In this document: positions 15,052 to 19,620 of the stretch, one piece after another | How positions within the stretch are numbered: the stretch's first letter is position 1 | Layout of the letters: every line of letters begins with the position of its first letter | NCBI GenBank assembly: GCA_014727915.1 | Contig: WJMO01000006.1 | Coordinates: 472,762 to 536,761 of the forward strand | Reading direction: 5' to 3' | Source: Candidatus Altiarchaeales archaeon | GTDB lineage: Archaea; Altiarchaeota; Altiarchaeia; IMC4; SCGC-AAA252-I15 | DNA: 64,000 bases | Made by a program: the position numbers and the translations under genes | The notes under the pieces: generated by a model | Seen by the model: the letters and a program-made list of their open reading frames with translations, nothing else | Databases searched by the model: none | Told to the model about the DNA's origin: nothing

Positions 15052-15212
15052 GAGGATACAATATATGGGACCCATATTATAATAAAAACAGGACAAAACC
15101 GGATTTCACAATAGTTTAAACAATTATATGAACTATTAAAAGGAAAACAGGTATAATTCAAACAAAGACAAGCCTTATATTGCCATCCTCCCTACTACTA
15201 TAAGCTGTTTCT

Positions 15213-15293
15213 GGGCCTGTAGCCTAGCGGATGCTGCTCACATGCGTTCGCGCAGACGAAACTGCAACAGCAGTCTAGCCTAAGGCGACAGCC
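15213..15293 (+). repeat. Partial direct copy of the tRNA-Arg 5' half (positions 1-20 and 21-32) interrupted by a 49-nt insertion carrying a UUCG hairpin
   Basis: GGGCCTGTAGCCTAGCGGAT ... AAGGCGACAGCC matches nt 1-32 of the downstream tRNA. The insert (15233-15281) contains TGCG-TTCG-CGCA and a GCTGCT/AGCAGT stem. A TATA-like cttatatt lies about 35 nt upstream. Confidence 0.5.
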
Positions 15294-15326
15294 CAAAATA
15301 GAAAACATAGAAGGAAGCACATTCAC

Positions 15327-15478
15327 GGGCCTGTAGCCTAGCGGATAAGGCGACAGCCTTCTACGAGCCCCTTTCTTTTAAAAAAAGAAAGGTGCTTCAC
15401 CCCCAAAGAAAAAAATAGGGTGGTGAGGAAGGGTTCGGGGATAGCTGTAGATCATGGGTTCGAATCCCATCAGGCCCA
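15327..15478 (+). tRNA. tRNA-Arg (anticodon TCT) with a 79-nt intron at the canonical 37/38 position (intron 15364-15442)
   Basis: Hand-folded cloverleaf: acceptor GGGCCTG/CAGGCCC, D-arm GCCT-AGCGGATA-AGGC, anticodon stem ACAGC/GCTGT with loop CTTCTA|A, 5-nt variable loop, T-arm ATGGG-TTCGAAT-CCCAT, discriminator A, no encoded CCA. The intron holds a perfect 9-bp hairpin CTTTCTTTT-aaa-AAAAGAAAG. Confidence 0.7.
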
Positions 15479-15490
15479 CAAGAATTTTTT

Positions 15491-16966
15491 ATGTTGGGGT
15501 TAAGGGGTTTTATTTCCATCATTTTAATCCCTAATATGCGCTTATGTTGTCTGATAGTCCTTATCCTCATTTTCTCAGGCTGTATGGGAGGATATGACAA
15601 AACAGAAGAATCAAAGCCAGACAATTATTGTGAAACCGATCGAGATTGCAGCCCTCTCGGATGTTGTTGTCCTAAAAAATGTACGGGTTCAGTATATGCC
15701 AGCCAGTACTATTATGAAAACTGTAAAGGGAAACCCTGTCCAGAAGTAGTATGTAACCCTGTTGTGACATGCACTTGTGAAAATAACATGTGTAAAACAC
15801 ACAAAGATAGTGTATTCAAAAAAACCACTTCATCAACTCAATCCACCACGACAACTTTGAAGATTGGGACTGATTATTCTGAACTAATCCACATGTATAC
15901 TGACAAATTCGACTCAAACAGTTCTATAATCAAATGCCAAAATGATGATGACTGTATCTTAGTCCCAAATATTGGTAGTTGTAATGCTGGTGGCATAAAT
16001 ATAGCCATCAATAAGGATTTCCAAGAGGGGTGGAACAAGCAACTAAATGAAGAACGTAGAGGGATGGTGTTTGCAGGAGTCATGTCGCAGCATTCATCAT
16101 GTTTCTCAAATCCAGTTTGTAACGATAATAAATGCACGACTGAGATTAACAATACAATGATTTGCAGTCAACAGGATATTCGTGGAAACTGTGAAAATCC
16201 TGCATATGCGAATAACTGGAAAAAGGAACTGGGTATACGATGTGAAGATCTTAATGCAATATGTCAGTGGGGGATAGGGAATATCAATGCATCAGACTTC
16301 ATAAATTGGGATGAGAACTTCGGGTCGTGGGGGGATGAATACGGGACATTCATCCAACTTAGAGATTTTAGCGGATATGAGTACGACCTAAACTCCTCGG
16401 TGGACGAAAAATTAAAGGTCTACGCATTACGTCGTGAGAAAAGCAGGAATATATCAAAGGAGTTCATAGCTTTCCTGAAGCAGTTGGATGTGAGTATAGA
16501 TGAGGATAGGAGTTTCGGGAAGATAATGGTTGTCGGAGGACGAAAAGATGACATGCAAAAGGTCATCTTCCACCCCTATGTCGAGTCATATTCCAGAGAT
16601 AACCCGGGATTCCCGGAGGATATTTTCACAGAAACTGAGCTGAAATATTGCATGACTGATGATGACTGCATAAGTATTGAAGCATATAGGAATGGATGTA
16701 CGGCCGGTGGGACATCAATACCCATGAATAAAAAATTCAAGGAGTATTGGACCGATAAGAGATTGTCAGATACTCTTTTTACAGGAACTACTGGGGTGCT
16801 ATCCTTCCATTGGTCCTGTTTTGCAATCCCAAAATGTCTGAACCATAGGTGTGCATTAGTCAATACAACGTGTTCAAGTCCTGAGGATTGTGACGGAGGA
16901 TACTACTACGAAAAGTTCAGTGAAGGAATAATATGCAAAGACAATAAATGTTATGGGGATATTTAG
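15491..16966 (+). CDS. Cys-rich secreted (lipo)protein with two internal roughly 70-aa repeats (CxxDDDC...AGG...NK.F.E.W...SCF..P.C module)
   Basis: Signal peptide with an FSGC lipobox-like motif. Paired segments CQNDDDCILVPNIGSCNAGGINIAINKDFQEGW... and CMTDDDCISIEAYRNGCTAGGTSIPMNKKFKEYW.... N- and C-terminal Cys knots. Low-GC codon usage. Confidence 0.5.
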   Translation: MLGLRGFISIILIPNMRLCCLIVLILIFSGCMGGYDKTEESKPDNYCETDRDCSPLGCCCPKKCTGSVYASQYYYENCKGKPCPEVVCNPVVTCTCENNMCKTHKDSVFKKTTSSTQSTTTTLKIGTDYSELIHMYTDKFDSNSSIIKCQNDDDCILVPNIGSCNAGGINIAINKDFQEGWNKQLNEERRGMVFAGVMSQHSSCFSNPVCNDNKCTTEINNTMICSQQDIRGNCENPAYANNWKKELGIRCEDLNAICQWGIGNINASDFINWDENFGSWGDEYGTFIQLRDFSGYEYDLNSSVDEKLKVYALRREKSRNISKEFIAFLKQLDVSIDEDRSFGKIMVVGGRKDDMQKVIFHPYVESYSRDNPGFPEDIFTETELKYCMTDDDCISIEAYRNGCTAGGTSIPMNKKFKEYWTDKRLSDTLFTGTTGVLSFHWSCFAIPKCLNHRCALVNTTCSSPEDCDGGYYYEKFSEGIICKDNKCYGDI

Positions 16967-17086
16967 GCTTCAAAAAAGGTTCTATTTTTGTCTAATAGTT
17001 GTTCCAGACTAACTTATAGTGACTATATATTGCAATAATCTATATTATAGATATCGAGAAAAATTATATATTGTAAAAGATATATT

Positions 17087-18256
17087 ATGAAAAGGAGTGA
17101 TTTTCCAGCCCCAAATGGCAGGTTTTCAAAGAATTCCGATGGAGACCTTACATTCATCCCAAACAGGATAATCCGGGATATTGAGGGACTATACTCTTCG
17201 GAGATAGTGAGCCTTCTTTCAAAGGCTGACAGGATGCTTGGTTCCCTGGACCGGTGTAGTCAAAGCGACCCGAACATTGACTTCCTCGTCGCGCCCTACA
17301 TACGGCTCGAGGCTGTCGCGAGCTCAAGAATCGAGGGGACTCAGACAACTTTAACGGACTACTACAAGCTGGAGGCAGAAAAGAAAGGGGAACACGACCC
17401 GGACTATATCGAGGTCAACAACTACATCAAAACGATGATGGCAGGCTTTGAGAGGGTCATTGGCGGACAAAAAATCGACCTCCCCTTCGTCAAATCACTT
17501 CATAAGACCCTTGTAGCGGGAAGCGAGCGCACAAAGGGGGTTCCCGGCCATGTCAGGACGAAACAGAACTGGATAGCCCCCATGAACTCGCCGATAGAGC
17601 TTGCGACATATGTCCCACCAGATCCAATTAAACTGGAGCCCCTGCTAAAGGATATGCAAGGATTCATCCTGAAAGACGATGACATCCCGCCGCTCATAAA
17701 GACGGCATTGATACACTATCAGTTCGAGGCGATACACCCGTTCGAAGACGGAAATGGGAGGGTCGGGAGAATCATCAACTCCCTCTACCTCGGCCAGGCA
17801 GGATGCCTCCACAGCCCGATCCTGTTTTTGAGCTTCTATTTCCAAAAGCACAGGGACGAATACTGGGCGAGGTTGTTGAGGACCAGCCAGCAAAGCGACT
17901 TCGACGGATGGCTTAGATTCTTTTTGAAGGGCATTATAGAGCAATCGCAAAGGTCTATAGAGCTTTCAAACAAGATAGAAGGGTTGCATACCAGCTATCA
18001 GGAACGTCTTGAGAAAAAGAGGGTCACAGCGACCACATTAAAGGCTTTGAGGCTGCTTTTCACAGGCAACCCATTCGTGTATATGACCGAGCTTGCAAGG
18101 GAGCTGGACGTCCATCTTCCGACGGCAAAGAAGGCGATAACACAGCTTGAGAAAGAAGGCATCCTGAAGCAATCAAAGGTCAAAAAGCCAGCAATCTACT
18201 TCGCCCCCGAGATAATAGATACATTACGGAAGGCTGAAAAGGAAATGCTCAAATAA
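17087..18256 (+). CDS. Fic/DOC family protein (probable AMPylator) with a C-terminal winged helix
   Basis: Canonical Fic motif HPFEDGNGRVGR (HxFx[DE]GNGRxxR). 389 aa. Confidence 0.8.
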   Translation: MKRSDFPAPNGRFSKNSDGDLTFIPNRIIRDIEGLYSSEIVSLLSKADRMLGSLDRCSQSDPNIDFLVAPYIRLEAVASSRIEGTQTTLTDYYKLEAEKKGEHDPDYIEVNNYIKTMMAGFERVIGGQKIDLPFVKSLHKTLVAGSERTKGVPGHVRTKQNWIAPMNSPIELATYVPPDPIKLEPLLKDMQGFILKDDDIPPLIKTALIHYQFEAIHPFEDGNGRVGRIINSLYLGQAGCLHSPILFLSFYFQKHRDEYWARLLRTSQQSDFDGWLRFFLKGIIEQSQRSIELSNKIEGLHTSYQERLEKKRVTATTLKALRLLFTGNPFVYMTELARELDVHLPTAKKAITQLEKEGILKQSKVKKPAIYFAPEIIDTLRKAEKEMLK

Positions 18257-18522
18257 CGCTCACAAGGACGCAAAAAAGGGAGTACGTACTGGTGGGGTGG
18301 TCAGGCATCAGGCCCGCATCAAATTAGATTAGACCAGGGGTTCGAACGCTCGGAAACCGAAGGTTTCCGGCGCGCCAAAATCCGCAGGCTTTTGAGCGTC
18401 CCATCAGGCCCGATACAGGATAATAATTGGGTGAGTGTTTGCTTGAGGCCGAAACACACTTTTTTTCCGTTGGAAAAAACCGACCCAGCTGGCGCAGGGA
18501 ATAAAGACCCGAGTCAGGTGTG

Positions 18523-19128
18523 CTAGAATGCTCTTGCCACAATAACCGAGGCAGCTGACAACAGAAGAGTTAGCACTGGCATGCAAACACACGCAGTATC
18601 GGCTGGTCTATCGGGAGAGGGAACAGTTGATGATGGTTTTCGGGCGGGGTATTTCGCTTCGTTTATGATTTCAAATGCTGCGGTTTTTGTCTCGTCCTTT
18701 TCCGGGTTTAATATGCTCACATCAAGTGTGTAGTAGACGCCATCAGAGTAGAAGTCGAAAAAACACTGTTCCTCGTCGGAGCCCGCCATTTCACATATGT
18801 AATATAGAGTGTGGCCAGAGTATGTGGCCTTTCCCACATTTCCCTGTTCATAGCCTTTTTTTAGGTCAGTCCATTCCGAGCTGCTCATATGTTGTTTCTC
18901 GAAGATGGCGACGATCCTATCGTCTGTTGAAGCATAGGATCTGCTGTTCAGGCTTTCCTCAACCATGGTCAGGTCTAATGCTGGCACATGGTCAGGGAAG
19001 GTTAGTTCGGCGACCGCCGGTGGTGAAAGGATGAGGAGTGCGAGGATGGCGAGATTGGAATGTTTCAGCATATAGAATGATTTGAGGAAGTGAATAAAAA
19101 ACCCAGATTCTGCCATCAACACCCACAA
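18523..19128 (-). CDS. Secreted protein with a C-terminal hydrophobic anchor
   Basis: Signal peptide (probable start at 19071, MLKHSNLAIL...), a C-terminal TM segment, and a basic tail. Confidence 0.35.
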   Translation of the reverse strand: MWVLMAESGFFIHFLKSFYMLKHSNLAILALLILSPPAVAELTFPDHVPALDLTMVEESLNSRSYASTDDRIVAIFEKQHMSSSEWTDLKKGYEQGNVGKATYSGHTLYYICEMAGSDEEQCFFDFYSDGVYYTLDVSILNPEKDETKTAAFEIINEAKYPARKPSSTVPSPDRPADTACVCMPVLTLLLSAASVIVARAF

Positions 19129-19182
19129 TACAGAAATCCCATTAAATATTTTTTTATATTGAATATTGCATTAGATAATGTC

Positions 19183-19620
19183 ATGAAAATAGGTTTAATC
19201 CTGGGTTTGGTGATGTTAGCCTCTGGGTGTCTCTGCTGCTGCAGTGGGGGATCTGACTATGGAGACTATGACTATGATGATTGGGATGCACCAACGGATT
19301 ATGCGGCAGCTACGGTAGCCTCTCCCAGTGGGGGCCCCAGGTTGGACTGCCTAGACGGGCATACACTCAATGACATCATGTGCTACAAGGCAGGGGGTGG
19401 GATTTCAACGGATGCCAGCCTCTGCAAGCAGATAGATGATCCGATTGGAGTTGCCGCATGCCTTGGTGGTGTGGCAGCAGTTAAAGACGATCCTAGCCTA
19501 TGCAGTCAAAGCAGGGGGGACTTGCATGATTTCTGCGTTGACGTATCCAATAGCAACTTCGCAGGAGAAACGGCAGGTAGCTTGGAGGAGAAATATCCCT
19601 TCCTGAAGCGGTGGGAGTAG
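19183..19620 (+). CDS. Cys-rich secreted lipoprotein with D-x-x-x-C repeats
   Basis: Start moved to MKIGLILGLVMLASGC (lipobox-like). A TATA-like tttttatatt sits about 30 nt upstream. Repeats of the form C..IDDP...AC / C.QSRGDLHDFC. Confidence 0.45.
   Translation: MKIGLILGLVMLASGCLCCCSGGSDYGDYDYDDWDAPTDYAAATVASPSGGPRLDCLDGHTLNDIMCYKAGGGISTDASLCKQIDDPIGVAACLGGVAAVKDDPSLCSQSRGDLHDFCVDVSNSNFAGETAGSLEEKYPFLKRWE

Follow-up and report, generated by a model that had tools for sequence, protein, structure and literature searches.

Introduction

The gain, loss and movement of introns in archaeal tRNA genes, as well as the origin of split tRNA genes, are still argued mostly from a few cases. One of them is the tRNA-Thr locus of Caldiarchaeum, where a 5′ tRNA fragment and the gain of an intron came about via an integrating element (PMC3293823). 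tRNA-Arg(TCT) is among the most used attachment sites in archaea, and attachment sites can span the D-loop (PMC8371274). The pTN3-like integrases use a tRNA gene's 5′ half, and the rebuilt gene ends up behind a promoter derived from the element (PMC8371274); this integrase family also causes inversions (PMC5495485). The published introns of archaeal tRNAs are 11-129 nt long, with medians of 12-25 nt (PMC4090602). Here, we describe a tRNA-Arg(TCT) locus in a stretch of 64,000 nt (referred to below as the window) from a Candidatus Altiarchaeales archaeon (contig WJMO01000006.1 of assembly GCA_014727915.1, positions 472,762 to 536,761), in which an intron-containing gene is preceded by a partial copy of its own 5′ half and followed by displaced copies of its 3′ end. 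We put the probability at roughly 60% that this is a functional intron-containing gene together with relics of an older gene copy, situated in a variable region that resembles an integration hot spot.

A tRNA-Arg(TCT) gene with a 79-nt intron

Across the 64-kb window, the sole RNA gene found by Rfam is a match to RF00005 at 15327-15478 on the plus strand, which scores 59.6 bits against a gathering score of 29 and has about 80 nt inserted in the anticodon loop. ARAGORN calls no tRNA here in its default mode, but returns tRNA-Arg(tct) with a 79-nt intron at 37/38 in its intron mode, and it calls tRNA-Arg(tct) in the spliced 73-mer (15327-15363 plus 15443-15478), which forms a clean cloverleaf. 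The 5′ exon (15327-15363) comprises nucleotides 1-37 and the 3′ exon (15443-15478) nucleotides 38-73, with A73 as the discriminator and CCA not encoded. A run of six T directly after the gene (15485-15490) is a likely archaeal termination signal.

A purpose-written scan of 15150-15520 for the bulge-helix-bulge motif, that is, a 4-bp helix with a 3-nt bulge at each end and a further helix beyond each bulge, gave 15364-15442 as the top candidate by a clear margin. The central helix of this motif is complete (4/4 bp, C32UUC35 paired with GGGG), its two 3-nt bulges read UA/C and AU/A, and the outer sides consist of the 5-bp anticodon stem and a 6-bp outer helix, GAGCCC/GGGUUC. In the minimum-energy fold of the gene (z = −5.4 versus shuffles), a cloverleaf forms whose anticodon arm is extended. 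The type-A intron, as we call it to set it apart from an unrelated intron type in relatives, has two internal hairpins; the hairpin CCUUUCUUUU/AAAAGAAAGG measures 10 bp and includes G-C pairs, and is not the perfect 9-bp A/T hairpin described in an earlier note on this DNA. Covariance score, cloverleaf, 37/38 site and motif are, at the level of sequence, all those of an archaeal tRNA with a canonical bulge-helix-bulge intron, and the gene, its TCT anticodon, the position of the intron and its limits had been called correctly in that note. A box C/D small RNA, as found in introns of the tRNA-Trp type, is not apparent, with neither TGATGA nor CTGA in the intron sequence, and no snoRNA match above noise was obtained with Rfam in the window.

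Judged from these features, 15327-15478 is a working, ordinary intron-containing archaeal tRNA-Arg(UCU) gene, and both the tRNA and its intron are of a known kind. The archaeal tRNA splicing endonuclease would excise the intron at the canonical bulge-helix-bulge, and the exons would then be ligated.

A partial copy of the tRNA upstream of the gene

Part of this gene is found a second time directly upstream, in the gene's orientation. The window contains exactly two copies of the 20-mer GGGCCTGTAGCCTAGCGGAT (nucleotides 1-20), at 15213 and 15327, where 0.01 would be expected by chance; the 13-mer TAAGGCGACAGCC (nucleotides 20-32) is likewise present exactly twice, at 15281 and 15346, against 0.09 by chance. 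The two pieces of the upstream copy, 15213-15232 and 15281-15293, are thus identical to the gene, and they are parted by an insert of 48-49 nt (15233-15280, with a 1-nt ambiguity at T15281), which agrees with what had been noticed earlier. Between the second piece and the functional gene lies an A-rich spacer of 33 nt (15294-15326). The insert does contain the TGCG-TTCG-CGCA hairpin (15243-15254), a UUCG hairpin in the RNA, and the GCTGCT/AGCAGT arms that the earlier note had seen in it, but the minimum-energy fold of the leader prefers pairings other than these.

The TATA-like element that had been proposed upstream of the copy is present as well: TTATATT at 15175-15181, 38 nt 5′ of the copy, forms part of a box, CCTTATATTG (15173-15182), which from its alignment to the boxes of relatives is presumably the ancestral tRNA promoter. 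A transcribed leader containing the copy is therefore plausible, all the more so since the box aligns with those of two relatives (L011 and L012, see below). Pairing with the 3′ half of the tRNA, as had been envisaged, is not supported, since the leader is predicted to fold on itself; in the predicted fold of 15205-15485, leader and tRNA are separate domains.

The exon-like pieces 1-20 and 21-32 are perfectly conserved, and the positions near 20/21 and 59/60 are known sites of non-canonical introns. Such features would be expected if 15213-15293 served as a functioning 5′ part in a tRNA that is split or has several introns, with the 49-nt insert as a non-canonical D-loop intron, and a T-loop insert further downstream (18347-18398, see below) fits a relaxed bulge-helix-bulge. 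We nevertheless regard this interpretation as extremely improbable. The motif scans gave no bulge-helix-bulge with exon-restoring boundaries near 15232/15281; among the best candidates, outer helices span 0-2 bp and the boundaries lie elsewhere. The fragment covers nucleotides 1-32 only, such that nucleotides 33-43 have no counterpart; leader and trailer do not form a complementary pair, and the partial copy obtains no tRNA-like Rfam score even at E ≤ 10. Furthermore, a complete gene with identical exons follows 114 nt away, which would make the product redundant, and in relatives, fragments homologous to this one have decayed or are shorter. The partial copy at 15213-15293 is not a gene. We also considered a mature tRNA that uses the upstream copy of nucleotides 1-20 by way of a 114-nt non-canonical intron, for which the junction would have to contain a palindromic 4-mer and be flanked by helices; the scan for the motif yielded no acceptable candidate.

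The upstream copy and the intron in related lineages

On the minus strand, the window carries the neighbouring genes glyA, folD and purH, and we used glyA to reach seven related lineages for comparison (L008, L010, L011, L012, L013, L015 and L016). Their glyA proteins are 74-81% identical to that of the window, and most of the named ones belong to the Altiarchaeota. The tRNA-Arg(TCT) genes in their contigs were located by Rfam, BLAST and ARAGORN. Exact 20-mer scans of public genome and metagenome contigs gave one true relative, L002, the remaining hits being bacterial tRNA arrays or unrelated intronless archaeal tRNAs. L002 and L013 are of the same species and stem from separate assemblies.

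These data also bear on the question of whether the arrangement might be an assembly artefact, i.e., strain variants that were mis-assembled in a metagenome bin. The window does come from a metagenome-assembled genome (MAG), and variable loci are prone to local mis-joins. However, comparable arrangements are found in five independent assemblies, which stem from several projects and were made with different assemblers (ENA megahit contigs, Logan contigs and NCBI MAGs), and L002 and L013 are identical over the locus, which makes an artefact very improbable.

In L012 and L011, the gene stands directly behind a TATA-like box located 35-40 nt upstream, and there is no upstream copy. The flank of the window's partial copy, 15172-15212, aligns with the L012 sequence that directly adjoins the intact gene, and in this alignment L012 has a clean gap of about 110 nt. 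Likewise, the boxes TTTATAAA, TTTTATT and TTTTATTCC, which are found 35-40 nt 5′ of the intact gene (L012, L011) or of an upstream fragment (L013, L016), align with the window's box. Since the flanks of the L012 and L011 genes align with the flank of the copy, the place where the gene originally began, downstream of its ancestral promoter, is that of the partial copy. The comparison of orthologous loci, which had been suggested in the earlier note, thus yields two relatives with an intact gene at the position of the copy, next to four with a comparable upstream fragment.

These four are L008, L013, L015 and L016, and in three of them (L008, L015, L016) intron-derived sequence follows the fragment. 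L008 has a 20-nt fragment, which does not match its own gene, and then a homologue of the window's own intron (local-alignment p < 0.002), while the L008 gene harbors a different intron. In L015, a 17-nt fragment is followed by a near-complete copy of the L008-type intron (p < 0.002), and in L016, a 12-nt fragment by the start of the L013-type intron (p = 0.002); the genes of both lineages are intronless. In L013, the upstream fragment is decayed. Because the fragments of L008, L015 and L016 precede intron-derived sequence, the upstream fragment descends from an older, intron-containing copy of the gene. The earlier suggestion of a decayed second gene survives in this form, but without its D-loop intron, given that the 49-nt insert has no bulge-helix-bulge.

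For the window itself, local alignments with shuffles revealed no significant similarity of the 49-nt insert or the 33-nt spacer to introns or leaders of the relatives. By eye, the end of the spacer resembles the spacer ends in L008 and L013, but the local-alignment tests were not significant. Neither an origin of the spacer from the 3′ part of an old intron nor a relationship of the insert to the type-B intron introduced below was supported (p = 0.05-0.87 in shuffled local alignments).

The intron of the working gene differs widely among the lineages. It is lacking in L012, L015 and L016; it is of type A in the window (79 nt) and, with an inverted interior, in L010; and it is of a second type, B, which is unrelated to type A, in L008 (85 nt), L013 (105 nt) and L011 (141 nt). 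The intron of the window is homologous to the leader segment of L008 and, inverted, to the intron of L010. In the latter (L010:1-116), the interior of the intron is the reverse complement of the interior of 15364-15442, whereas the exons keep their sense, which resembles an inversion across the inverted repeat that forms the outer helix of the intron; the contig ends inside the intron. The L011 gene (L011:4800-5017, minus strand), with its 141 nt at 37/38, lies above the 11-129 nt range of a 2014 review. It was missed by Rfam at the gathering threshold, and ARAGORN in intron mode mis-named it tRNA-Gly(tcc).

Where the gene is intronless, type-B-like sequence is found beside it, namely in the trailer in L012 (2060-2145, minus strand) and in the leader in L015 (375-447) and L016 (1630-1719, minus strand), and these sequences always start at the same GAAC motif. 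Between the type-B sequences of L015 and L008, there is a compensatory change in one stem. Consensus folding of type B recovered only the first short hairpin, which is insufficient for a structured RNA family.

A serious rival with respect to the origin of the copies is plain local tandem duplication without any mobile element. Here, the 5′ exon and intron (and separately the 3′ end) would have been duplicated by unequal recombination or replication slippage; the upstream unit would then have decayed by internal deletions and insertions, and recombination between the direct repeats would explain the lineages that lack it. Several of the above observations are in keeping with this. The copies lie 13-150 nt from the gene with no mobile-element genes between, and a duplicate of 5′ exon and intron would be viable at once, as the downstream unit still yields a complete pre-tRNA. 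Intron-like sequence after the fragment, as seen in L008, L015 and L016, is what a duplication predicts, and L011 and L012 resemble the collapsed state. However, the intron types do not agree: in L008, the upstream unit is of type A and the gene of type B, and in L015, the upstream unit is of type B and the gene intronless. Due to this mismatch, the units of L008 and L015 are not simple copies of each other unless an allele or intron was replaced. In the window, moreover, the first unit shares nothing detectable with the second beyond 33 exon nucleotides, and an inserted island, to which we return below, together with the variable gene content shows that foreign DNA enters the locus. We thus consider tandem duplication a possibility to be taken seriously, but on balance a rather unlikely one.

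Copies of the tRNA 3′ end and a low-GC island

The 3′ end of the tRNA is duplicated as well. One or two downstream copies of its last 13-17 nt are present in the window and in 6/6 relatives with readable downstream sequence, usually just 3′ of a hairpin made up of an A-run, a stem and a T-run. Although the sequences of T-stem and acceptor vary by lineage, each copy has its own tRNA as the best or equal-best match. Lineage-specific changes are thus mirrored in the copies, and in the window and L013 this includes both T-stem strands.

A BLAST search of the window with the locus recovered TCCCATCAGGCCC a second time at 18399 and CATCAGGCCC a second time at 18306, repeats of 10-14 nt in the orientation of the gene. 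The first relic in sequence order (18306-18316, plus strand) is a displaced copy of the tRNA 3′ end, CATCAGGCCCG; it carries G73, as do most relatives, as opposed to A73 in the window's working gene. The second, older relic (18337-18412, plus strand) consists of the start of the T-arm, GGGGTTCGAA, an insert of 52 nt with two hairpins (18347-18398) at T-loop position 59/60, and then TCCCATCAGGCCCG. It is orthologous to 5850-5930 of L013, an element that lies 13 nt 3′ of the L013 tRNA, and hairpin 1 of the insert differs in sequence between the two while its pairing is kept. A relaxed bulge-helix-bulge motif fits exactly at 18347-18398, and Rfam has no family that matches 18337-18412. In L013, L016, L008, L015 and L011, the relic is found within 13-150 nt of the tRNA, but in the window it has been pushed 2.9 kb away.

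What separates the relic from the gene in the window is a 2.8-kb island (15479-18305, plus strand) with a GC content of 0.32-0.46, compared to about 0.55 for the genome. It is bounded by a 10-nt direct repeat, CATCAGGCCC, at 15468-15477 and 18306-18315, and it is not present at the same site in L008, L011, L013, L015 and L016. One of its genes (15536-16966) encodes a Cys-rich lipoprotein with no family match, and the other (17087-18256) a Fic/DOC protein with a winged-helix tail, which matches Fic_N and Fic in Pfam and the phage-associated family phrog_5978 at 4.5e-73. No integrase was found in the island. Its composition and borders mark the island as the trace of an insertion at the 3′ end of the tRNA. 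Neither the relics at 18306-18412 nor the island had been described in the earlier note.

Beyond these elements, the region is variable in gene content and orientation. The genes between glyA and a TMEM260-like gene differ in every lineage, and in L010, a TrbC-type pilin gene adjoins the tRNA. With respect to glyA, the whole module of promoter, fragment, tRNA and 3′ copy is inverted in L013 (5659-5931), L010 (1-116) and L015 (357-654) as compared to the window (15173-15478); in L013 and L016, the exons are identical and the orientation is opposite.

Given this recurrent layout, it is conceivable that the flanking copies and structured inserts are functional and kept identical to the tRNA by selection. 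They might act as a leader and trailer that guide processing, as a source of intron-derived small RNAs, as spare or decoy attachment sites, or as sites of cassette exchange or inversion. The tRNA-Arg(UCU) locus would then be a conserved and selected module of promoter, 5′ fragment with structured RNA, complete gene, and hairpin with 3′ fragment. The three-part layout is indeed kept across lineages whose glyA is only 74-81% identical to the window's, the 3′ copies follow the changes in their own tRNA, including those on both T-stem strands, and hairpin 1 of the T-loop insert has kept its pairing between window and L013. Also, type-B-like sequence is retained in the leader (L015, L016) or trailer (L012) of intronless genes, one of its stems has changed in a compensatory manner between L015 and L008, and the module and the interior of the intron are each inverted in some lineages. 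Other observations do not fit selection well. L011 and L012 lack the 5′ fragment, L013 has it in decayed form, and in the others its length varies (12, 17, 20 or 20+13 nt); that of L008 mismatches its own gene. The window's 3′ relic has moved 2.9 kb, with a T-run terminator right after the tRNA, apparently without harm. Finally, there are no matches to Rfam families, consensus folding of type B supports one short hairpin, and the window's intron has no C/D box motifs. We therefore consider selection for such a module unlikely. If it did apply, the copies would be sites of recombination or processing, intron-derived RNAs would shift between intron, leader and trailer, and the gene and its intron would be invertible or exchangeable, which would provide a living example of gain, loss and movement of a tRNA intron.

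Several further sequences in the vicinity deserve mention. The segment 15505-15521 of the window, GGGTTTTATTTCCATCA, shares 76% identity with the T-arm segment GGGTTCGAATCCCATCA, downstream of which it is found at a distance of 49 nt; the resemblance may be due to chance or to one more decayed 3′ relic. Two small divergent open reading frames (ORFs) of 201 aa (minus strand) and 176 aa (plus strand), with signal or lipobox-like N-termini and no family match, occupy 18523-19620 in the interval from the 3′ relic to the TMEM260-like gene. In L008 (779-905), a tRNA-Arg(CCT) gene has its own 3′ end repeated in inverted orientation about 40 nt further downstream, as ATCACGAACGGGCTGGGAT, and the trailer of tRNA-Arg(TCT) on the same contig has the analogous ATCACGAAACCGGCGGGAT; tRNA-Arg(CCT) of L015 has no such copy. 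A hairpin motif, GGGATGTAAAAAGC...GCTTTTT, occurs near tRNA-Arg loci in L008 (3020-3060 and 3135-3165, minus strand), L015 (612-637) and L011 (4600-4625, minus strand), and could be a terminator or a small repeat element.

Discussion

Our analysis favors the view that a functional tRNA-Arg(TCT) gene is surrounded by the relics of an older copy of itself. The partial copy 15213-15293 would be the displaced 5′ end of this older copy, left at its original start behind its original promoter, and a replacement 5′ part or a whole gene copy would have recombined in about 114 nt downstream of that start. With its 5′ and 3′ relics, varying introns, module inversions and the Fic-bearing island at the tRNA 3′ end, the locus appears to be a hot spot for rearrangement. 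The likeliest agent would be site-specific recombination by mobile elements with an attachment site in tRNA-Arg(TCT), the elements themselves having been lost later. The exact identity between the window's 5′ relic and the gene would be best explained by short-tract gene conversion between neighbouring copies. Since the conserved TATA-like box sits upstream of the relic, the latter is probably transcribed within a 5′ leader, about 115-125 nt in length, which RNase P would remove. The single-copy state is seen in L012 and L011, where the promoter flank is joined directly to the gene.

In the earlier note, the upstream copy had been proposed to be an attachment-site scar. In the broader form of a recombination relic at an integration hot spot, this idea is supported, but no integrase or mobile element lies between copy and gene. 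This is one of several points that weigh against the explanation we favor. Only 33-94 nt without an ORF separate the 5′ relic from the gene, and an element would need to have been deleted almost completely. No Pfam integrase was listed among the called genes of the fetched loci of the relatives, and the five ORFs that we scanned in the window, from the tRNA up to the TMEM260-like gene, yielded no integrase either. Viral contigs gave no match in three scans for exact occurrences of the 5′ and 3′ ends of the tRNA; plasmids and Altiarchaeota elements are hardly sampled. The short-range layout is common to several lineages and as such fits one old event better than frequent integration. Furthermore, one would expect an old neutral relic to decay, and that of L013 has done so, yet the 33 nt of the window are identical to the gene, and the 3′ relics follow compensatory changes in the T-stem; this calls for gene conversion over tracts of 13-20 nt, or for selection. 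Lastly, the direct repeat that bounds the island has only 10 nt, and the explanation does not extend to the 49-nt insert in the window.

Two other routes to the arrangement were considered and set aside. Unequal crossing-over at the CTGTAG shared by positions 5-10 and 40-45 would leave no working gene and was rejected by reasoning. A single insertion of a nested cassette that produced both flanks is unlikely, since L011 and L012 carry 3′ copies but no 5′ copy.

For the evolution of tRNA genes, the relevance of the locus is moderate, and it lies in the fact that one clade provides a set of related snapshots. The tRNA-Arg(UCU) gene is found intronless, with two unrelated types of long intron and with an inverted intron, and old gene ends, both 5′ and 3′, as well as old introns are parked in its leader or trailer. 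Should further genomes show the pattern too, it would constitute a data set that tests whether attachment-site recombination carries introns between genes, and also whether gene conversion or selection keeps the fragments alive. Furthermore, there is a warning for annotation here, in that default tRNA finders miss such genes, and the gene with the 141-nt intron escaped Rfam and received a wrong name from ARAGORN.

Comparison with known systems

The gene as such closely resembles other archaeal tRNA genes with a canonical intron at 37/38, with which it shares the position, the helix-bulge-helix-bulge-helix geometry and the cloverleaf that forms once the intron is removed. The earlier description of the intron as unusually long applies in relation to the medians of 12-25 nt (PMC4090602), above which the 79 nt here and the 85-141 nt in relatives lie far; it applies less in relation to the published range of 11-129 nt, into which the 79 nt fall, or to the relatives, whose introns have 85, 105 or 141 nt or are absent. 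The long introns of tRNA-Trp nest a C/D box RNA, whereas none is nested in the intron of the window.

With split and multi-intron tRNA genes (Nanoarchaeum, Caldivirga, Thermoproteales), the locus has in common that pieces of tRNA are parted by structured inserts in the D-loop or T-loop. However, its D-loop insert lacks a bulge-helix-bulge, leader and trailer are not complementary, and the locus includes a complete gene. The pieces look like fossils, not like parts at work.

Integration by pTN3-like elements in Thermococcales (PMC5495485; PMC8371274) would likewise displace the 5′ half and the promoter and leave element sequence upstream of the rebuilt gene, and the inversions caused by these integrases have a parallel in the module inversions in relatives of the window. 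The likeness is in outcome only, as no integrase or element was found and the Altiarchaeota are unrelated to Thermococcales. The island is flanked on one side by the 3′ end of the tRNA and on the other by a downstream copy of this end, with a bounding repeat of 10 nt only and with an older 3′ relic that carries a structured 52-nt insert in the T-loop; most 3′ copies at the locus in general are within 150 nt of the gene, with no element between.

A further parallel is tRNA-Thr(GGU) of Caldiarchaeum subterraneum (Sugahara et al. 2012, PMC3293823), where a 5′ fragment also forms a direct repeat upstream of a complete gene, the intron content differs, and the gain or loss of an intron is tied to recombination at the tRNA. 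There, fragment and gene lie 1.8 kb apart, with a recombinase gene in the interval, and the variation is within one population. In our locus, by contrast, 33-94 nt without a recombinase lie between, the layout is shared by several divergent lineages, and there are 3′ relics in addition. With its conserved gene relics nested at short range, and with long introns that can move and invert, the locus adds a new form to the known picture of tRNA fragments and intron transfer.

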